Made by a program: the position numbers and the translations under genes
Notes under the pieces: model-generated
Databases searched by the model: none
What the model saw: only the letters and a program-made list of their open reading frames with translations
Told to the model about the DNA's origin: nothing
Part shown: positions 847 through 22,473 of the stretch, in pieces
How positions within the stretch are numbered: position 1 is the stretch's first letter
Layout: every line of letters starts with the position of its first letter
From: an uncultured virus (IMG/VR IMGVR_UViG_3300029171_000037)
Reading direction: 5' to 3' (one strand)
DNA length: 29,886 nucleotides
IMG/VR virus record: IMGVR_UViG_3300029171_000037
Location: 1 to 29,886 of that record

Positions 847-917
847 GTGTATTTCCGTTTCATTATTAGTATGTGAGAAATCCAGCTCCTCATGCCGGCA
901 TTATCTCCTGTATTTGG

Positions 918-1357
918 TAGTAAATCAAGAACAAGGACAAATGAACACATCTGATTGCGAAGCAGCAGTGTGTTCATTTCGCATCTGCGATGCGCAGTCG
1001 AAATCAATTGCTGCTGAACGCGACGCAATTGATTCACCTGTTCTTTAGCTACGCATCTGACTTAACCGAAACAATCACAATCCCTCCCCGCGTTTTCGTA
1101 GCTGACTGGAAGAACCTCACGCTTGCATTTAAGCAAGTACTGTGTAAAGTCGGCATAACTCCCAAGCAGGGCATTACTTCACAGTTTGGATCTGTAGGCT
1201 TGGGCTGACTGGCGTAGTTCCGTCAAACTGTTCCTCTTACCGGGCGTGTAGTAGGGTATTCACGCTGCGTGCATCTCTCTGCCACTCTGGGCTTGCCTAG
1301 ATGCGTCGGCTTGTTCTTATATGTATCTGAGGTGACTCAAGTTTAGTCAAACCCCAC
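918..1357. ncRNA. Candidate large structured non-coding element (ncRNA or ssDNA origin)
   Basis: No credible ORF. Stems at 939-949/969-979, 980-985/989-994 and 1002-1011/1025-1034 are enclosed by 927-936/1037-1045. Stems 1161-1167/1198-1204 and 1181-1188/1224-1231 cross. A further stem lies at 1271-1276/1299-1304. Confidence 0.5.
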
Positions 1358-1519
1358 TTATTTCGCGGATTCTTTCCACTTGCTCAGTCGTTTCAGCTTC
1401 TTCCAGCGTTGCACTTTCGTCGCTTTGCCTTTAACAGACAATTGCTTAGGTTGTGGACCTGGAGGACACATCTGAATGACGACTTGTTGTCCATTGATTA
1501 CTTCTGTTCTAGTGTTCAT
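1358..1519 (-). CDS. Small basic protein (53 aa)
   Basis: ATG 1519 to TAA 1358: MNTRTEVINGQQVVIQMCPPGPQPKQLSVKGKATKVQRWKKLKRLSKWKESAK. K/R-rich C-terminus, weak AGG RBS, not in the ORF track. Confidence 0.6.
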   Translation of the reverse strand: MNTRTEVINGQQVVIQMCPPGPQPKQLSVKGKATKVQRWKKLKRLSKWKESAK

Positions 1520-1529
1520 CTACTTTTAA

Positions 1530-1750
1530 CCTATTGTTTTCTTTTTGTAATAGGGAAAACCCCTTGAGTTTGGCCGACGAAGTAACGTCACTCAAGGGGT
1601 TTGTAGAAACCGGTACGATGAAGAATGTTACTTGTTGTTTTATAACGCTGTCGGCCAAAACGCGTTAGGTGTGAGTGAAGAGAGCACACACTCTCTTGGA
1701 ACGGAACAGGAAATGAAACTACTGAATCAACAAGCTCTCATTCACTCACA
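1530..1750 (-). ncRNA. Structured leader/small RNA with loop-loop pseudoknot and terminator-like hairpin
   Basis: Hairpins at 1670-1685/1734-1750, 1643-1648/1662-1667 and a 13-bp stem at 1557-1569/1590-1602. Loops are complementary (TTTGGCCGAC 1569-1578 vs GTCGGCCAAA 1650-1659). Lies directly downstream of a promoter. Confidence 0.65.
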
Positions 1751-1754
1751 TACG

Positions 1755-1785
1755 TATTTATACTTGAACCTTTGAAAAGAGTCAA
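1755..1785 (-). promoter_or_regulatory. Sigma70-like promoter overlapping a TATAAATA box
   Basis: Minus strand reads TTGACT-N17-TATAAATA (-35 at 1780-1785, -10 at 1757-1762). Confidence 0.75.
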
Positions 1786-4542: not shown

Positions 4543-6956
4543 ACCTCAAGGACATAAGGATAGCCGCCACCAACCAGACGACTCATTTGTACAATCGAAA
4601 CCTTGAGGTTTGGTTGTACACTTCCGAAGTCAGCTGTTTGCATTGCAGCCGTGTAAGTGAAATTAGGCGATACCGCTGTACTTGTGCGAACAACAACTGT
4701 TCCGTTGTAGATCGCAACTGCATAACCAGCCCAGTCAGCATCATGCTCAATTTCTGTGTAGTCACGCAAAGCATTTACCAAGCGTGGACGTTCAACCCAT
4801 GCTACTGTCCAGTCACCATTTGTTTCCTTAACAGCAGTAGGTTGTGCAACACGCCAAGGACGCATGTTCAGTGCGTAGGGCTTGACGTCAAATGAAGATG
4901 CCTTGTCCAAGCTGGAACCAAGAGTCACAGTCTTGTACTTGACTGTCTTACCAATGTCAGACACAGCCATGTTAATCGACGAAATGTTATTGTCAATCAG
5001 CAAGAACAGCTCTTGTGTCACGTGATCGCTGATGTTTGGCTCTGAACCTTGACGACCGCGCATCAAACGACTCAAACGGTACTGATTAGGACCAATCAGA
5101 GTTGCATTGCGGAAGCCAATCATTTCACGACCAACCATTGCACGGTTAACACCGTTCTGTACGGCCAAGTCACTTGCAGCAGATACCAAAGTACCTTGCT
5201 TCAATGTAACGTCAACTGTCGACACGTCGTCCCACACGTAGTAGTTACCGAATGGAGGAGCAGGCAAGATTGTGTCAGCCATACCCATCGTAACAATGTT
5301 CGACGAAGTCAGGATTGACTGGTACGAAGCACCACTATCAACGCTACGGTACACATTCGCACCTGGCCAACCTGGCGCAGCATAACCGTGAACAGCAGCC
5401 AACAGACGCGGAGACGTATCTTGGTCGTTGATCGGTGGCGTTTCCAAGAACAAAGTGCTTGAGTAACCAACAGAAGTCGGAATGTTCGTGCTTTGATCAG
5501 GTGGTGTAGGCGAAGGGATACCGCTAGACTGGTATGTCTGAGTATTGTAGTCGCTACGAACAGCAGTGAACTCAAGAATACCATCATCTGTCGATGTCAC
5601 TTGGATGATACGAACTTCAGCTGTCTCACCTGTGTCCAGAGGAATGATCACAACGTCACCTGGCTCCAAGTCTACGTTGAAGTAGTCGGTGGAGAAAGTG
5701 TACTGTTGCTGTTCAATGTGAGCATTGACAAGAGCAGTTTCTGCAACACGCTTTGCATCTGCATCAGTCATCGCAAATGGAACTTCAAGCTTTGTATCTT
5801 GACCTTCTTCAAACGTCTCAATAGTCGCTGTCTGGCTGTAGACATTGTAGTCCAAATCGCTGCTGTAGTAGTTCAACGTAACACTACGTGGCAAGTCGAT
5901 ACCTTGATTGCGCTTCGCGGTGTATGGTGCCAAACCACTGACTTCAGAATCACCCATCACCTTGTGACCAAGGTCAGCCATTGTCAAAGTGCGAACTGGA
6001 GCTTGATACTTCGGAATGAACTTAACGGTACCGCCAGAAGGAACGATGTCGAACTGGTAAGCAGTAGCCATTGTGCTCAGCAAGTTGCGGAGCGTCATTG
6101 TTGAAGCTACAGTAAAGTGAACTGGAGTTGTAGGCAGAGCTGAAACGTCAAACTGACTGTTGTCGTATCCTGCGTAGTGCATGATCGACGTGATAACAAC
6201 TGGCAGTGTTGGTTGTGTGAACGCACCATTGTAGCCTGGAGTACCGTCATAACGTGAGTCAGCATTGCCGTCCCCTTGACCATCACCAGTCAACATGTCA
6301 ACAATCAATGCACCAGCGACAGCGACACCCACACCTGCAGCAAGCAAGCTGAGCCAGTCACCATTCGCAACCGCATCCTTGATCCAGTCAAAGACAGAGT
6401 CCTTCAAGCTATCGAAGAACGACTTGTCTTCTGGAGACAAACCTGCGCCAGAGACAATGTCAGTCATTGGTGCCCAGTACACGATATCTGGAGGTGTATT
6501 GCCTCCTAGAGACGAAGTGTGATCTGCGATACAAACGTACGCATTACCATAGCCTTCGTGTTTTGTGTCGATGCTGTCGTAGATCGCATTGCGAACTACG
6601 TCATTCGTCTTGTATTCGAAGCCATCAAGCCAATCACCCTTCCACACTAGTGCAGTTCCTGTAATTGTACCTGTGTCACCAGAAATTGTGGCCTTGATGC
6701 CGCTTCCTGCAATGTCAAGCTTGGTGATAACACCAAGCGACACGCCATTATCAAGCAGAATTAGCTCACCAGCCGGTCCAGGTGGCCCTGGAACAAGACA
6801 GCACTTCTCAATGATGATCGGATCACCAGGATTGGAAGTCGAAGTTGAACCGCCGATACAAAACTCAAAGCGTGGATCTGGCGGTGTAGATGTGAACGAA
6901 CCAGGCGACGTGTAATCGGTCTTCGTCGCTTTGAACGGTACTGGACAAACGCTCAT
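4539..6956 (-). CDS. Central tail-tip / host-specificity protein, C-terminal part (Phage-tail_3 / GTA-like), with an extra N-terminal region
   Basis: From about aa 248: DVSAL...LRNLL...AYQFD...GG.VKFIP, LPRSVTLNY...DY, LEPGDVV, WPGA.VYRS.D.G, EMIGF..A.L.....YRLSRLMRGRQGSE. The N-terminus carries GPPGPAG and a CBM5/12-like W.GDW...Y..NDVV...YVC...HTS motif. Confidence 0.88.
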   Translation of the reverse strand: MSVCPVPFKATKTDYTSPGSFTSTPPDPRFEFCIGGSTSTSNPGDPIIIEKCCLVPGPPGPAGELILLDNGVSLGVITKLDIAGSGIKATISGDTGTITGTALVWKGDWLDGFEYKTNDVVRNAIYDSIDTKHEGYGNAYVCIADHTSSLGGNTPPDIVYWAPMTDIVSGAGLSPEDKSFFDSLKDSVFDWIKDAVANGDWLSLLAAGVGVAVAGALIVDMLTGDGQGDGNADSRYDGTPGYNGAFTQPTLPVVITSIMHYAGYDNSQFDVSALPTTPVHFTVASTMTLRNLLSTMATAYQFDIVPSGGTVKFIPKYQAPVRTLTMADLGHKVMGDSEVSGLAPYTAKRNQGIDLPRSVTLNYYSSDLDYNVYSQTATIETFEEGQDTKLEVPFAMTDADAKRVAETALVNAHIEQQQYTFSTDYFNVDLEPGDVVIIPLDTGETAEVRIIQVTSTDDGILEFTAVRSDYNTQTYQSSGIPSPTPPDQSTNIPTSVGYSSTLFLETPPINDQDTSPRLLAAVHGYAAPGWPGANVYRSVDSGASYQSILTSSNIVTMGMADTILPAPPFGNYYVWDDVSTVDVTLKQGTLVSAASDLAVQNGVNRAMVGREMIGFRNATLIGPNQYRLSRLMRGRQGSEPNISDHVTQELFLLIDNNISSINMAVSDIGKTVKYKTVTLGSSLDKASSFDVKPYALNMRPWRVAQPTAVKETNGDWTVAWVERPRLVNALRDYTEIEHDADWAGYAVAIYNGTVVVRTSTAVSPNFTYTAAMQTADFGSVQPNLKVSIVQMSRLVGGGYPYVLEV

Positions 6957-8767: not shown

Positions 8768-9472
8768 TTATGCGAACGCCTTACGCAATGTGCAGTACAT
8801 GTTTGTGCCATCAGATACACAATCCATGATGTCAGTTGCATTTGCTGCAGTCGACAAAGCAGAGCTACCAGTAAACTTCCATGCTGACCCATACGTGAAC
8901 ACGCGGTTACCTGATCCGTCCTGCTTGATGATGAACGAATACACACCAGCACCCAAGTTAGTTGGGTTGGCCAACGTTGCATTCTGACCAAGCGTCAAAG
9001 TGAACAAGTTGCTTGCAGATGCATCAGGGGTGATAGTTGCGGCAGAAGTCAAAGCAACAGCTGTATAGCGTTGTGCTTTGGAGAACGTGTTCACAGTGTT
9101 CAGCTTCGCTACGTTCGAACCGACGTCCAAAGCACCACCAGTGATTGTGATGTTTGCTGTATTAGCACTTGTCACAACGCCAAGAGTAGAGTTTGTAGCT
9201 GCAGGTACGGAGATGATACCTGACGACACATTGACGTTCGTACCGATTTGAACAACACCCTTTGTGGAAGTTGTAGCATCAGGAAACACTGTTGAGCCGT
9301 TAGCCGCTGCAGTGATACGTCCCTTAGCATCAACAGTAATGTTTGCAGATGTGTACGAACCAGGCGTCACTGCTGTGGACGACAGTTGAGGAGACGTAGC
9401 AGTAGTGCCGACACCACCAAGGTCGCCAGCCAATTGTACGTCACCAGGAATTGTAGTTGTTGCGTTAGCCAT
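8768..9472 (-). CDS. Short tail fibre protein (234 aa)
   Basis: LAGDL.G...GSYTSANITVDAKGRITAA, DATTSTKG and NTFSKAQR motifs; C-terminal TL..N.TLANPTN...G.Y..IIKQDGSG.R domain. Confidence 0.8.
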   Translation of the reverse strand: MANATTTIPGDVQLAGDLGGVGTTATSPQLSSTAVTPGSYTSANITVDAKGRITAAANGSTVFPDATTSTKGVVQIGTNVNVSSGIISVPAATNSTLGVVTSANTANITITGGALDVGSNVAKLNTVNTFSKAQRYTAVALTSAATITPDASASNLFTLTLGQNATLANPTNLGAGVYSFIIKQDGSGNRVFTYGSAWKFTGSSALSTAANATDIMDCVSDGTNMYCTLRKAFA

Positions 9473-9481
9473 TTTATGTCC

Positions 9482-11182
9482 TTAGATGTAGGTGCACTTC
9501 GTTGTAGCTCCGTCGATCGTGCACTTCAGAATCTGGAGTTGTGTGGTATTTGCGTTGTTGCTGAACTTGTATGATGCAGCGAATGTTGTTGGGTAGACGT
9601 AGAAGTCAGTTCCTGCTACGGGTGTGCCCAATGCTACATAACCAGTTAGCGAATTGAACAAATTTGTATCAGAGATGCCAACAGATGAACTGGTGCCCAT
9701 TGTGTTCGATGTGATCAACAAATTACCACCGGATAGACTTGCTACAGCGTCAGAGCCAAAGGCGGTGTTCAAACGCGCGATCAAGTCAGAATACGTCTGT
9801 GCTGTCGATCCGTCAATAATTACAACTTTTCCTGCTGGTACATAGATATCGGCCCTGTACGAAGTGCCAACACCTGCCACAGCGGTACCCAAACCAACAT
9901 AACCCGTCAACGAAGACTGTGCACCTGCACTGATACTAATAGCAGATGGAGAACCCAATGTTTTGCTAGTAACACGAAGATTACCACCGTTCAACGACAT
10001 CAGGAACCACGGATTCGTGTTCATCTGATTCATCATATTTGTGTACGTACCACAGAAATTGCTGGTGATTGATGGACTGCGGGCTACACCATCAACAGTA
10101 ATGTTAAAAGTGTACGTAGTTGTCACCATTCCAGTGTAGGATGCTCCAGTGTAATTTGCAGGAGATCCACCTGCTCCACCACCTGTTACAGAATCACTGT
10201 AGTTTGTACCAGAGATAATCGGGTACATATTAACATAAAAACCACCCAGGCCATCGGTTGAAGCTGTAGCAGAACCCAAGTACGCGTTCAACGACGATGC
10301 CATGATAGCTGTAGCCATTGCAGACGTTGTCTGCATAGATGATCCAGCGATGTTAGCACTACGTGTGACTCCGTTGATAACAATGGAGACGGTGTACAGA
10401 GTACCTGTATTAGGATATCCTGTATTCGTTGATGAGAAGCGAAGGAATGCAGCAGTCTGTGACGTGTTTGTCAGACCTGTAGGCGACGAACCTGTCTTTG
10501 CACCACCCACGTTGATATCTTGATAGCCGTACGTAGGAGAGATGTTAGACAAACCCGTAGCCGAAGAACCAGTCTTGCCACCACCAACATTGACGGATTG
10601 GTAACCAGCTGTCAGAGTGTGAGATCCACTGTTCGTTGTGTTGGTAACAACATAGAACGTATCTCCTGTGACTCCGTTGACGGGATCAAGGATAGTCGGG
10701 AGTGACGAACCTGCATCAACAACGTGGACGCTGTACGCTTCAACGTCAGGTGTGTATGTGGAAACGCCAGATGTGTTTGCAGGAAGACGTTGAGCCTTTG
10801 TGACAACATTGTTCTGATTCAACTGAACAACATTCGATCCAACGTTGACAGAACCAGACGAAATGGAGATGTTCGATGTATTGCCGCTGTTCGCAACACC
10901 AAGTACACTACCTGTACCTGCAGGAACGGACAATACTCCAGCAGCGACATTCATGTTTGTGCCAACTTGAGCGTAACCTTTGGAAGATGTCGTCGCATCA
11001 GGTCCCAAGAACGAACCATTGATTGCATAGACTACGCGGCCTTTTGCATCTACGACGATGTTTGCTGATGTGTAAGAACCAGGAGAGACACCGGTCACAC
11101 GCAGCTGTGGCGTGTTCGCTGTTCCTGTGAGATCACCAGCAAGCGTGACGCTACCTGGCGTAGAAGTTGTTGCCAAAGCCAT
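9482..11182 (-). CDS. Tail fibre protein (566 aa), paralogue of 8768..9472 with a large insertion
   Basis: The first ~190 aa and last ~40 aa align by eye with the 234-aa fibre; repeated domains occupy about aa 193-526. Confidence 0.8.
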   Translation of the reverse strand: MALATTSTPGSVTLAGDLTGTANTPQLRVTGVSPGSYTSANIVVDAKGRVVYAINGSFLGPDATTSSKGYAQVGTNMNVAAGVLSVPAGTGSVLGVANSGNTSNISISSGSVNVGSNVVQLNQNNVVTKAQRLPANTSGVSTYTPDVEAYSVHVVDAGSSLPTILDPVNGVTGDTFYVVTNTTNSGSHTLTAGYQSVNVGGGKTGSSATGLSNISPTYGYQDINVGGAKTGSSPTGLTNTSQTAAFLRFSSTNTGYPNTGTLYTVSIVINGVTRSANIAGSSMQTTSAMATAIMASSLNAYLGSATASTDGLGGFYVNMYPIISGTNYSDSVTGGGAGGSPANYTGASYTGMVTTTYTFNITVDGVARSPSITSNFCGTYTNMMNQMNTNPWFLMSLNGGNLRVTSKTLGSPSAISISAGAQSSLTGYVGLGTAVAGVGTSYRADIYVPAGKVVIIDGSTAQTYSDLIARLNTAFGSDAVASLSGGNLLITSNTMGTSSSVGISDTNLFNSLTGYVALGTPVAGTDFYVYPTTFAASYKFSNNANTTQLQILKCTIDGATTKCTYI

Positions 11183-19683: not shown

Positions 19684-22473
19684 TTACTGGAAGTTCATCA
19701 CGAAAGAGCCGGACCACGTAATTGTCTTTGACGCTTCACCTGTAACCATCAAGTCTACGTTAGCACCAGAAACAGCCAAAGCGACCGTCCATGCACTTGC
19801 TCCTGTGTCTCCACCAATTACCGTAACAGTAGGTGTGCCCAAGAACGAAGCCGTGCCACTTGGGTTCTTAGCACAGAATGTGATTTCCCATCCCTTTGCG
19901 TCACCCGTTGCAGCCTCAATCGCCGACACATACACTTTACCAGTGCGCATGCCACCTGTAGAAATCACAATGTGACCAGTACCGTTTGTTGCGCTATTTG
20001 TTGCGTTGGACGTCCCAGCGAATGTTGAGGTTGCATTCGTAGTTGTACACAAAACTGTACCGATAGAAGCTCCGACACCTGTAGTACCATTACGCTGGCA
20101 GTTGCTCAGGTTATACTCACCTTGATAGTTACTCTTGGAAAATGCACCGAAAGCTGTTGCAGCTGCGTGGGTTACACTGGAGTTGGGTCCGAAGGCCAAA
20201 CCACGGTCAGCAGTACAGCTTGCACCGTTACCGATCGCAACACCAACAGAACCAGAGCCTGTTACGGATGCACTGTTACCAATGGCCGTGCCATAACCTG
20301 CCGTGACGTTAGTGGAATCACCCAAAGCGACAGAGTTCGTGTTTGAACAACGTGCGAAGAAACCAATTGCTGTGCTGTTTGCGTTAGCAGTACACGTGTT
20401 ACCGATGGCAATGCCGTACGAACCGTTGACGGTGTGTGACTGACCAATAGCGATACCGTATTGTCCTGTCAGTGTTGCACTGCTCCAACCAATAGCAATC
20501 ACATTGGAAGTGCCCAATGTCATGTTGTAACCAATACCCAACGATCCAGAACCAGTTGCAACCACAGGTTTCTGGTTGCCCGATGTAGCCATGGCTGTCC
20601 AACCCACAGGACTCCACGTTTGTGTAGATACGTCGGCGTATGTCAGTTGCCACTTACCATTCTGGGTGTTACCACCAACAACCATTACTTCCGCACCACC
20701 TGTCGTCAAAGCTGCAGGCATATCCGAAGCACGGCTCCATGCACCACTTGCAGCAATGTAGATACCGTTATTCGCAGATGTGCTTTGGTTCTTAACCAAA
20801 ACGCGCATACCAGCGGTCACAGCAAAGCCGTCAACACTGATCAATCCACTCAACGTAGCGATGTTTGCTGTAGTTGCACGACCCACAGGTGCGTACAATG
20901 TAGTTGTGCCACCACCAGCTGTTGCCCACGAAGAGTTTATGCCGTCAGTAGTCAAAAACTTACCGCTGTTACCAGACTGGCTTGGCAACAAGCTGTTCAA
21001 CGTTTGGTCACCTGTGTTCGTACCACTCAGGTTAGAACCCGTCACGGTGCCAGAAGCCGCAACGGACGTAGGAGTAATCGCACCAAGTGTCAACGTCACA
21101 GCAGGAGTTGTTGTCGAAGTAGCCACGCTACCAGAAACGCCGTTCGCTGTCACGATCGATAGGTTCGTCACAGTACCAGTGTTCGTTGTAAAACCGGAGT
21201 CGTTTGTCAACAGGCTAATGTTCGAACCAGATTGCAATGCACTATCTGCCAAAGCCAAGGAAGCGATTGAACCAGAGCTCAAAGCCAACGTACGGTTAGC
21301 AGTCAAGTCTCCACCACCCGTCAAGCCTGTGCCCGCTGTCAACGTGCGTGCATCCGTCACTGGAGTGTATGTTAGAGCAGTCGTCACATCACCAGAAGTC
21401 AATGTCACTGCACCTGTACGCGTGTTGAACGAAGTCACGCCACCCGCTGAACCATTTGAAACAGCAGTGATACGACCCTTAGCATCAACCGTTACATTAG
21501 CGTTCGTGAACGAACCTACGTTGCTGTTAACAGTTGCCAAAGTGCCTGTGATTGCAGTGGTGCCAGAACCGGTTAGGTCACCACTCAACGTGATTGTCTG
21601 ATTTCCAGTAATGAAACCACTATCATTGACCAATGTAGAGATGTTGTCTCCAGGCTGTACGGCGGAATCAGCAAGTGCACCCTGTGCAGCTGTAGCGAAC
21701 TCAGCAACATCATGTGTTACGATGTCACCATAACCACCGATAGTCGTCTCTACGGCTGTGACGCGACTATCCAAACCAGCGATTTCGGAATCGTCAGCCT
21801 TTGCATTCAGGGCAGCTTGCAGATCGGTTTGCGAAGACAGTGTACCAGTGATATCACCCCAAGCAACTGTGACCGCTCCACCCGTTTCGTTGACCCAATT
21901 TGTACCGTTGTACTTTAGGGATTGACCAGCTGTTGGTGATGTGATCACGACATCCGTCAGCGAATCTAAGTTCGTTGGGATTGTTGGCTTACCAATGAGG
22001 TCAGCATATGCACCAGACGTAGCTACAGTAGCCAATACTGGCTTGTTCTTGATATAGTCAAGCGACAGGTTGTTCGACTGTGTCCAATCAGACTGAATCT
22101 GTGCAGCAGGAATCGTTGGCTTGTTGTTCAGGTCACCGTAGTTGCCAGACAATGCAACTGTAGCCAACGAAGATGTGTTAGCTTTCAGGTTCAGTGCAGC
22201 TTGCAAGTCCGTCTGATTAGAGAGAGTACCAGTAATACTGCCCCATGCTGCGCTGCCTCCACCTCCGCCACCAGTAGGATCAGCGTTTTTCCATTCTTGT
22301 GAACCGGAATCAAACGTAAGGACTTGGCCATGTGTAGGAGAATTGATTGTGACGTCAGAAAGCGAATCAAGGTCGTTAGGCGCATCAAACGGCACCGAAC
22401 CAACATTGATCACTGTCACGTCTTCTTGGACGACAACTTCGTAGTTGTTTTCTGTTACTTGTACTTGCGACAT
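19684..22473 (-). CDS. Large fibre protein (929 aa) with YadA-like head repeats, encoded in the head/neck region
   Basis: Duplicated LDSL.DV.I.SPT.GQ.L, WG.ITGTLS.QTDLQAALN.KA and LATVA.SG.Y.DL..KPTIP motifs; RVLVKNQ.....NGIY domain; 14-aa (A/G)xAIG repeats. Confidence 0.85.
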   Translation of the reverse strand: MSQVQVTENNYEVVVQEDVTVINVGSVPFDAPNDLDSLSDVTINSPTHGQVLTFDSGSQEWKNADPTGGGGGGSAAWGSITGTLSNQTDLQAALNLKANTSSLATVALSGNYGDLNNKPTIPAAQIQSDWTQSNNLSLDYIKNKPVLATVATSGAYADLIGKPTIPTNLDSLTDVVITSPTAGQSLKYNGTNWVNETGGAVTVAWGDITGTLSSQTDLQAALNAKADDSEIAGLDSRVTAVETTIGGYGDIVTHDVAEFATAAQGALADSAVQPGDNISTLVNDSGFITGNQTITLSGDLTGSGTTAITGTLATVNSNVGSFTNANVTVDAKGRITAVSNGSAGGVTSFNTRTGAVTLTSGDVTTALTYTPVTDARTLTAGTGLTGGGDLTANRTLALSSGSIASLALADSALQSGSNISLLTNDSGFTTNTGTVTNLSIVTANGVSGSVATSTTTPAVTLTLGAITPTSVAASGTVTGSNLSGTNTGDQTLNSLLPSQSGNSGKFLTTDGINSSWATAGGGTTTLYAPVGRATTANIATLSGLISVDGFAVTAGMRVLVKNQSTSANNGIYIAASGAWSRASDMPAALTTGGAEVMVVGGNTQNGKWQLTYADVSTQTWSPVGWTAMATSGNQKPVVATGSGSLGIGYNMTLGTSNVIAIGWSSATLTGQYGIAIGQSHTVNGSYGIAIGNTCTANANSTAIGFFARCSNTNSVALGDSTNVTAGYGTAIGNSASVTGSGSVGVAIGNGASCTADRGLAFGPNSSVTHAAATAFGAFSKSNYQGEYNLSNCQRNGTTGVGASIGTVLCTTTNATSTFAGTSNATNSATNGTGHIVISTGGMRTGKVYVSAIEAATGDAKGWEITFCAKNPSGTASFLGTPTVTVIGGDTGASAWTVALAVSGANVDLMVTGEASKTITWSGSFVMNFQ

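Follow-up and report, generated by a model that had tools for sequence, protein, structure and literature searches.

The c4 RNA of phages P1 and P7 and the CI RNA of phage P4 are short structured leader RNAs in which two exposed segments complement two sites in the same transcript, and these pairings co-vary between relatives. The PR'-6S-tR' unit of phage lambda has a strong promoter with a terminator ~150-200 nucleotides (nt) further on, ahead of a long block of co-directional genes. Type III toxin-antitoxin loci of the ToxIN kind are ordered as promoter, pseudoknot-forming RNA, terminator and protein gene, and the packaging RNA (pRNA) of phage phi29 has two complementary loops that co-vary. 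Here we compare with these systems an element of IMG/VR virus record IMGVR_UViG_3300029171_000037. The window that we analysed is the entire record, 29,886 bases with a completeness estimate of 86%. In this element, most of the loop of a terminator-like hairpin is complementary to two segments upstream of it. We consider it very likely that this is a real, conserved, pseudoknotted RNA element. As judged from sequence comparison, it is a well-supported candidate for a new structured RNA motif of uncultured aquatic phages, ~150-200 nt long and represented by four sequences so far.

The element occupies the spacer between a tRNA-Val gene (1803-1877) and an open reading frame (ORF) of 53 amino acids (aa; 1358-1519), all on the minus strand. 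An earlier note, written from the sequence of the window alone, had described a promoter, a long hairpin, two hairpins whose loops can pair (called H1 and H2 here), a linker that pairs with the second of these loops, and a last stem before the ORF. Every one of these parts is found on the minus strand of the window, where that note had placed it:

1757..1785, minus strand: sigma-70-type promoter, TTGACT (1785-1780), 17-nt spacer, TATAAA (1762-1757)
1670..1750, minus strand: long 5' hairpin of 10+6 base pairs (bp) with a 48-nt loop, specific to the window
1643..1667, minus strand: H1 hairpin, TAACGC (1667-1662) with GCGTTA (1648-1643), 13-nt loop that includes X
1650..1658, minus strand: X, TTGGCCGAC, in the H1 loop; partner X', 9 bp in the window
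1627..1633, minus strand: Y, AAGTAAC, in the linker; partner Y', 7 bp
1590..1602, minus strand: H2 5' arm, AAACCCCTTGAGT; 13-bp stem with ACTCAAGGGGTTT
1570..1589, minus strand: H2 loop, 20 nt, consisting of GAC, Y' GTTACTT (1586-1580), C and X' GTCGGCCAA (1578-1570)
1557..1569, minus strand: H2 3' arm, ACTCAAGGGGTTT; GC-rich stem, then the T-run
1549..1559, minus strand: T-rich tail TTTTCCCTATT, with the T-run at 1559-1556
1530..1554, minus strand: CCTATT/AATAGG stem, CCTATT (1554-1549) with AATAGG (1535-1530), before the ATG at 1519
1546..1669, minus strand: conserved core matched by a covariance model (model R1, 37.4 bits)
1358..1519, minus strand: 53-aa orphan ORF, the variable cargo; no Pfam, PHROG or PADLOC family

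X and Y together complement 16 of the 20 nucleotides of the H2 loop. The covariance-model alignment gives H1 two extra inner pairs, G1661-C1650 and T1660-A1649, which overlap X. The promoter pattern has a single match in the window against 0.02 expected, and is present in 2 of 100 shuffles. Transcription would start near A1751, and the T-rich tail at 1549-1559 is the probable 3' end of a short transcript. In the long 5' hairpin, TGTGAGTGAA (1750-1741) and GAGAGC (1739-1734) pair with GCTCTC (1685-1680) and TTCACTCACA (1679-1670).

Rfam holds no family for this RNA. With Rfam 15, the whole window gave two tRNA matches and nothing else at gathering scores. For region 1300-2000 at E<=10, the best non-tRNA matches scored 20.8 and 13.3 bits, against gathering scores of 48.5 and 45, and were on the other strand, and L090 (a relative described below) and L100 at E<=5 gave one unrelated match (E=4), outside the element. 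The comparison with Rfam covariance models that the earlier note had proposed returns no family for the element at or above gathering score. A limited check of the literature turned up no phage terminator whose loop is described as forming a pseudoknot with segments upstream. The note's view of the locus as a compact, promoter-driven, pseudoknotted RNA outside the known families is borne out both by the lack of an Rfam match and by conservation in relatives.

Relatives were reached through neighbouring proteins. Searches of the region with blastn and nhmmer against 84 loci returned chance words only and missed L006, the closest relative. Against 50,697 phage records, blastn matched the tRNA part of the window alone and found no match to the element of a second relative, L089. 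An exact 17-nt loop word had three matches in IMG/VR, all within coding regions of unrelated contigs. Among the single-protein searches, the 53-aa ORF and the 805-aa tail protein led to no related locus, and the resolvase-like protein gave only a weak partial match, L001. The best non-self relatives of the DUF5675 protein are 59-64% identical to it, and their alignment led to 80 IMG/VR loci, L006 among them. L006 comes from a complete record of 33,107 bases and is syntenic with the window from the tail protein through the resolvase-like gene. No similarity between the L006 spacer and the window spacer is detected by blastn; the homologue was recognised by reading the syntenic spacer.

The spacer of L006 contains the promoter TTGACA-N17-TATGAT, a 7-bp H1 (AGAGCTG/CAGCTCT) with the loop TTTGGTCG, and a linker that includes CTACCGAAG. 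Its H2 has 12 bp (AACTCCTCAAGT/ACTTGAGGAGTT) and a 22-nt loop made up of GCGC, CTTCGGTAG, GC and CGACCAA, and is followed by TTTCCTTTT. Two metagenome contigs, L089 and L090, were then retrieved with an alignment of two resolvase-like proteins. Their elements are ~81-83% identical to that of L006, and the two contigs share 98% identity overall, with 64 mismatches over 3342 nt. L006, L089 and L090, referred to below as the L group, all retain the promoter, H1, X:X', Y:Y', H2 and the T-run. The element lies at 1546-1669 in the window, 11879-11998 in L006, 3110-3224 in L089 and 1644-1760 in L090.

A covariance model built from the L group only (R1) found 1546-1669 on the minus strand of the window with 37.4 bits and E=6e-06, its sole window match at E<=1. 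A second model, R2, run over 1,354,034 bases of 98 sources, recovered the four members only; its next match, L070, had E=0.14. A strict pattern derived from the window and L006 had no match in metagenome contigs and matched only the contig of L006 in IMG/VR. With a looser pattern, six of seven IMG/VR stretches and both genome-contig stretches were chance matches without the hairpin and pairing architecture, and were rejected. The L070 site (5785-5885, plus strand) lies in an AT-rich phage with a DUF5675 protein. There, a 370-nt spacer before a 795-aa ORF holds a 10-bp hairpin whose tip, UGGUGG, complements CCACCA, which lies in an inner loop of the terminator-like hairpin that comes next and has a long T-run. 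This site may represent an analogous design, and we do not count it as a member.

Are the helices conserved as helices? Covariation was counted in the model-guided alignment A8 of the four sequences, with H1, X:X' and H2 treated as one pseudoknotted structure of 26 pairs. All 104 cells of these 26 pairs are Watson-Crick, and 11 of the 26 pairs are changed on both sides. In H1, the window and the L group differ on both sides of four of the seven aligned pairs, with every cell paired. H2 has three stem versions, in which 6 of 12 aligned pairs are changed on both sides and 48/48 cells are paired. X:X' is 9 bp long in the window, against 7 bp in L006, L089 and L090, where TTGGTCG pairs with CGACCAA; one of the seven shared pairs is compensatory (C:G to U:A), and all 28 cells are paired. 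None of 500 shuffles matched any of the five covariation measures, and when the 3' partners were slid by 1-3 columns as a control, only 27.7-50.5% of cells were paired.

Because the four sequences use shifted registers of Y:Y' in A8, this helix was given no formal column count and its pairs were listed per sequence. Y and Y' are AAGTAAC and GTTACTT in the window, CTACCGAAG and CTTCGGTAG in L006, CACTAAG and CTTAGTG in L089, and CGATAAG and CTTATCG in L090. These are four different versions of the helix, with 30/30 pairs Watson-Crick. The three L sequences have an AAG/CTT core in common, and the four adjoining positions are all changed on both sides; the window retains the core but has its additional pairs on the other side of it. 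Between L089 and L090 there are seven substitutions in 115 core columns, four of which make up two compensatory pairs within Y:Y'. At the background rate of 64/3342, 0.27 substitutions would be expected in those 14 nucleotides (Poisson 1.7e-4). Selection for new versions of Y:Y' could account for this cluster, as could a patch of recombination. The covariation that the earlier note had put forward as a check is therefore positive for both long-range pairings, X:X' and Y:Y', across the four sequences. Since all four helices co-vary, all are under selection.

The complementarity of the H2 loop also exceeds what composition predicts. When the 110 nt upstream were dinucleotide-shuffled, none of 5000 versions had as much colinear two-segment complementarity to the loop (16 nt), and of 5000 shuffled loops one did; taken one by one, the four sequences have a loop/upstream complementarity that 0-3 of 5000 shuffles equal. 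Folding of the predicted 205-nt transcript gives -57.9 kcal/mol (z = -3.68), equalled by none of 200 shuffles, and a wider 301-nt stretch gives z = -2.39, equalled by one of 100. We also searched 1,237,311 bases on both strands with a structure-only descriptor (a big hairpin, a T-run and two colinear loop/upstream complements). Besides the window and the syntenic site in L006, it matched two others: a low-complexity, AT-rich stretch of L051, and a site in L078 that is weak and not syntenic. Totals of promoter-like and terminator-like sites were never above those of shuffles in any scan, including that of the complete relative.

The spacing of the parts is similar in all four sequences. From the H1 5' arm to X (L1) there are 3 nt in the window, where X:X' has 9 bp, and 1 nt in the L group, where it has 7 bp; from X to the H1 3' arm (L2) there are 1 and 0 nt, respectively. 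H1 is separated from Y by 6-9 nt and Y from H2 by 21-24 nt. Within the H2 loop, which measures 19-22 nt across the four sequences, 3-4 nt lie between the H2 5' arm and Y', 1-2 nt between Y' and X', and none between X' and the H2 3' arm in any of the four. Stems of 6 bp (H1) and 9 bp (X:X') in the window, and of 7 bp each in the L group, fall within the dimensions of H-type pseudoknots, and both stems show covariation in this small sample of four sequences. In its dimensions, with a short L1 to cross the second stem and an L2 of 0-1 nt, H1 with X:X' corresponds to a classical H-type pseudoknot. As X' abuts the H2 3' arm, H1, X:X' and H2 can stack end to end as one rod, and by the same reasoning Y:Y' would form a side helix next to X:X'. 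Because H1 and H2 co-vary along with the long-range pairings, the simplest reading is that the four helices coexist.

The signals that would start and end the transcript are conserved as well. The promoter of L006 is unchanged in L089 and L090, and it aligns with the window promoter through AGTTGAC and through GTAT followed by A or G, at equal spacing; sigma-70 hexamers with 16-18 nt spacing are thus kept in the relatives. The L-group promoter scores 11/12 and ranks first among the gene-strand sigma-70 matches of the complete 33-kb relative (G001). The preceding gene has a stop codon that overlaps the -35 box. Across the promoter, the 5' part and H1, the L group is near-constant over ~110 nt (three differences between L006 and the others, none between L089 and L090), whereas the flanks of L006 and L089 are only ~82-85% identical. 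All four sequences have a T-run behind H2 (TTTCCTTTTGCC in L006, TTTTCCTTTGCC in L089 and L090), which reads TTTT or TTT, then CC, then further T, so that each has the GC-rich stem and U-run of a terminator. The H2 stem itself, of 12-13 bp, has a predicted stability of -17 to -20 kcal/mol in the four sequences. Promoter, hairpin and T-run are oriented with the genes. Scans and reading of the spacers revealed no separate promoter between H2 and the next ORF, and no terminator was found before H2 in the tRNA block of the window.

Two further sequence features touch the promoter region. At 11857-11872 of L006 and the equivalent positions of L089 and L090, the transcribed 5' part holds a small palindrome, TGCAA..TTGCA in L006 and TGCG....CGCA in L089 and L090, whose symmetry is retained through two-sided change; it could be an operator or a small hairpin. 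In the window, a second promoter-like site, TTGTCA-N17-TATAAA, lies at 2635-2670 on the minus strand, just upstream of the tRNA block. It has the exact 9-mer GTATAAATA in common with the -10 region of the element (1755-1763). Both exact copies are in spacers on the gene strand, and the 9-mer with <=1 mismatch is not enriched (4 observed vs 3.36 expected).

What might such an RNA do? Its probable role is that of a leader or small RNA that terminates its own transcription at an operon boundary. Within this frame, we tentatively favor a pseudoknot-assisted terminator or gate that would release a 150-200-nt RNA and allow partial read-through. An intrinsic-terminator survey selected hairpins with 3-10-nt loops (bioRxiv 10.64898/2026.05.29.728758), and a loop of 19-22 nt, as in H2, lies outside that selection and needs explaining. 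During transcription, Y' and X' would emerge ahead of the H2 3' arm and could dock first on Y and X. Docking would pre-organise an otherwise too-large loop into a closed junction, so that H2 could nucleate and close in time at the U-run. H2 would then serve as terminator for both the short transcript and the upstream operon. Terminated transcripts would release a compact, nuclease-resistant small RNA, and the read-through fraction would supply the next block, beginning with the variable small ORF and followed by the Holliday-junction-resolvase-like gene.

Several points weigh against this proposal or against the strength of the comparison beneath it. The alignment used for the count was fitted to H1 and H2 by the model, with X:X' excluded from the fit. 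The four sequences represent two deep lineages, three of them being close relatives, and the statistics count cells rather than independent events. G:U pairs are absent from all 134 helix cells (104 + 30, over the four elements), which is unusual in RNA and unexplained. The coexistence of all four helices in three dimensions rests on reasoning. The U-run is short, with 3-4 U before CC, and a simple terminator scan misses H2 because the loop exceeds its 8-nt limit. No RNA run is among the sequencing runs that hold the stretch, and the start, the end and termination are predictions. Stable structures just upstream of terminators can suppress termination, according to one study (bioRxiv 10.64898/2026.06.17.733018). 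Finally, the downstream ORFs of the different lineages are unrelated, which argues against a leader tied to one gene.

This last point would be expected of a stand-alone small RNA (sRNA) gene at the 3' end of the upstream operon, which shares the operon terminator and acts in trans on a protein or RNA. Under this explanation, which we regard as possible and still rather unlikely, the pseudoknot gives compactness and stability, and read-through is incidental. The locus has the form of a complete promoter and terminator unit of 150-200 nt, and the unit is conserved while the ORF behind it gets swapped. The near-invariance of the L-group promoter, 5' part and H1 over ~110 nt against flanks of ~82-85% identity fits an sRNA gene, as does the overlap of the upstream stop codon with the -35 box. 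Moreover, small-RNA terminator loops can be functional sites, as stated in a published report (PMC11979758). However, the 5' part, the only long single-stranded seed candidate, is not common to the window and the L group, and the loop segments able to act as seeds are internally paired and vary. No conserved target site was found in phage genomes, the only genomes searched.

The variability of Y:Y' suggests a different emphasis. In an RNA-only specificity switch, the terminator at the next block would work or fail by loop docking, and Y:Y' would be a rapidly co-evolving lineage address that prevents cross-reaction with the RNAs of related phages. It would act as an immunity or incompatibility determinant comparable to P1 c4, P4 CI or the kissing loops of plasmids, with the difference that it resides in a terminator loop. 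The four Y:Y' versions and the two compensatory double changes between L089 and L090, which are 98% identical, are what this idea predicts. We nevertheless hold it to be doubtful.

A related and more doubtful proposal is immunity or specificity of the c4/CI kind, in which accumulated short RNA acts in trans: its Y'X' loop would bind X and Y as these emerge on transcripts of its own phage or of a related one that enters the cell, and would decide the fate of those transcripts, with Y:Y' as the fast-evolving specificity pair. Two short loop segments do complement two sites of the same leader in the same order, and L089 and L090, at 98% identity, carry two compensatory double changes in Y:Y'. There is also precedent for action in trans, since c4 RNA represses Ant synthesis in this way (PMC8546580). 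Against this, no C4 match was obtained from Rfam even at E<=10, and no integrase or repressor was recognised among the scanned ORFs, so that a temperate life style is unproven. The Y:Y' cluster may also be a recombination patch, as it falls among seven substitutions and an indel within ~60 nt. The best downstream duplexes of the loop (-18 to -22 kcal/mol) are no better than shuffled-loop means (-16 to -22). No second target of the loop is conserved genome-wide, and none within 1.3 kb downstream beats shuffled loops in any of the four sequences. Within the coding sequence of a 105-aa gene of L089 and L090, a plus-strand stretch (2173-2217 in L089, 710-754 in L090) resembles the H2 loop of the same phage and could pair with the X-Y region. 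As a target it was dropped, being absent from L006 and the window and probably due to chance.

Equally hard to accept is a switch of opposite sign, in which early formation of X:X' and Y:Y' sterically hinders H2, read-through is the default and termination occurs only once the loop is released by some factor, be it a protein, an antisense RNA or temperature. The order of synthesis permits this, as transcription reaches Y' and X' earlier than the H2 3' arm, and the X:X' complement can be extended 1-2 nt into that arm. Additionally, structures beside terminators can suppress them (bioRxiv 10.64898/2026.06.17.733018), and the window ensemble is split, with H1 + H2 as the minimum free energy (MFE) structure and the nested X+Y fold as the centroid. 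Yet the overlap with the H2 arm is only 1-2 nt. In the nearest-neighbour model, H1 + H2 has -26 to -29 kcal/mol and the nested X+Y fold -12 to -19, so that H1 + H2 is the more stable by 8-17 kcal/mol in all four sequences. In L006, the MFE structure and the centroid are both H1 + H2, and H1 co-varies, though the nested alternative needs no H1.

An element that acts at the DNA level, where a replication or packaging site would fold as a single strand or form alternative cruciforms, is very unlikely. The absence of G:U, with 134/134 helix cells Watson-Crick, means that both strands can form the same helices, a further ~500 nt of non-coding DNA lie directly downstream, and no replication gene was recognised on reading the ORFs of the complete relative, some of which were scanned. 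However, the conserved promoter and T-run are both oriented with the genes, the opposite strand of the L group has no T-run after the hairpin, and interleaved complements suit a pseudoknot better than duplex DNA. Intermolecular X:X' and Y:Y' pairing into dimers or rings, as in phi29-like packaging RNA, is just as improbable: covariation is blind to intra- versus intermolecular pairing, both partners are on every molecule and natural homo-oligomeric RNAs exist (PMC12286853), but the lengths of loops and spacers agree with an intramolecular H-type pseudoknot, with L1 shifting with helix length (3 nt for 9 bp, 1 nt for 7 bp), Rfam gives no pRNA match and the terminase region of the phage is ordinary.

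Beyond the core, the surroundings of the element are not conserved. The long 5' hairpin, which the earlier note had counted as part of the design, is present in the window and lies outside the conserved core; L006, L089 and L090 have 37 unrelated nucleotides in its place. The same holds for the CCTATT/AATAGG stem, which the note had placed over the probable ribosome-binding site of the 53-aa ORF: it exists in the window and has no supported counterpart in the relatives, as two uncompensated changes in L089 and L090 break the nearest candidate in L006. In the L group, ~50 nt past the T-run are still common; similarity is then lost up to the non-coding stretch that precedes the resolvase-like gene. 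As for the gating of a downstream gene that the earlier note had suggested, the ORFs next to the element have 53, 117 and 106 aa in the three lineages and are unrelated (BLASTP E 8.1 and 1.4); a homology among them suspected by eye was rejected on this basis. The 53-aa ORF matched itself alone among 5.77 billion proteins. Pfam, PHROG and PADLOC scans of neighbour and cargo ORFs gave nothing useful, and the cargo ORFs match no family.

Between the cargo ORF and the resolvase-like gene, all lineages have ~500 nt without a convincing ORF (window 847-1357, minus strand; L089 3600-3994; L006 12389-12878). The window and L089 have two short colinear similarities there (best E=0.004). A common word, AGAGATGC, adjoins an 8-bp hairpin in L006 and L089. 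This region could be a second non-coding RNA or a replication origin.

The phage itself is siphovirus-like. Every long ORF of the window is on the minus strand, and the ORFs include a GTA-like tail protein, the DUF5675 protein and the Holliday-junction-resolvase-like protein. The sequencing runs that hold the stretch are aquatic metagenomes only, possibly including its source. The closest DNA and protein matches of these uncultured aquatic phages are ~27-40% identical at the protein level, and none is a cultured relative. The minus strand carries five tRNA genes (Ile-GAT, Asn-GTT, Ala-TGC, Thr-TGT and Val-TAC) at 1803-2566, with an orphan-looking ORF of 99 aa (1970-2269) among them, and parts of this block are ~79% identical to tRNA regions of T4-like coliphages (blastn). 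No tRNA genes were found in L006, the closest relative, which makes the tRNA block of the window an insertion adjoining the RNA element. At 434-454, also on the minus strand, the resolvase-like gene is separated from the ORF that follows it by a spacer with a canonical terminator-like hairpin (AGAGCCGC/GCGGCTCT; 5-nt loop, T-rich tail). Three structural genes contain copies of a 69-nt repeat (9293-9361, 11012-11080 and 21448-21516), which are 62-74% identical and probably reflect a common protein domain.

How does the element compare with the systems introduced at the outset? Like c4 and CI, it has two exposed segments that complement two sites in the same transcript, and this holds in all four sequences. 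The c4 type also comprises a second copy of the target at the start of the gene it controls, and its leader is cut by RNase P to yield a short stable RNA. The element here has upstream partner sites only: no downstream target at a ribosome-binding site or gene start was found within 1.3 kb in any of the four sequences. Its effector segments are inside a terminator loop, its spacers fit an intramolecular pseudoknot, and Rfam gave no C4 match at either threshold used (E<=10; E<=5).

The resemblance to the lambda PR'-6S-tR' unit lies in a strong promoter of constitutive appearance and a terminator after ~150-200 nt, with a short RNA as the default product. The two differ in that no antiterminator of the Q family appears among the PHROG and Pfam matches of the scanned neighbouring ORFs, and in that the downstream block of the element starts with small ORFs and a resolvase-like gene instead of lysis genes. 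To our knowledge, a pseudoknotted terminator loop is not a feature of lambda tR'. With type III toxin-antitoxin loci, the element has in common the order of promoter, pseudoknot RNA, terminator and then protein gene. Such loci have an antitoxin RNA made of tandem repeats and, past the terminator, a gene for an endoribonuclease toxin. However, region 800-2700 contains no tandem repeats, neither Pfam nor PADLOC reports a toxin family, and the downstream proteins are unrelated to one another and to any defence family. From phi29 pRNA it is set apart by the lack of an Rfam match, by its occurrence in a siphovirus-like phage with a GTA-like tail protein and by spacers that fit intramolecular pairing.

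The element also has something in common with pseudoknot riboswitches and 'tug-of-war' terminators, as these are portrayed in one preprint: a pseudoknot adjoins an intrinsic terminator, and the order of co-transcriptional folding should decide termination (bioRxiv 10.64898/2026.06.17.733018). Unlike riboswitches, it lacks conserved unpaired nucleotides, common to both the window and the L group, from which a ligand pocket might be built, and it has no Rfam riboswitch match. Moreover, its pseudoknot uses the terminator's own loop and does not compete for the stem. The architecture is unusual: two long-range helices take up the whole loop of a terminator hairpin, and no nucleotide intervenes at the junction with the terminator arm. 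Should termination be under the control of the pseudoknot, the element would be a compact, protein-free conditional terminator and a possible design for synthetic terminators, and it would explain how transcription units are separated in a phage with nearly all genes on one strand. If instead the RNA acts in trans, it would be an addition to the few known phage regulatory RNAs.

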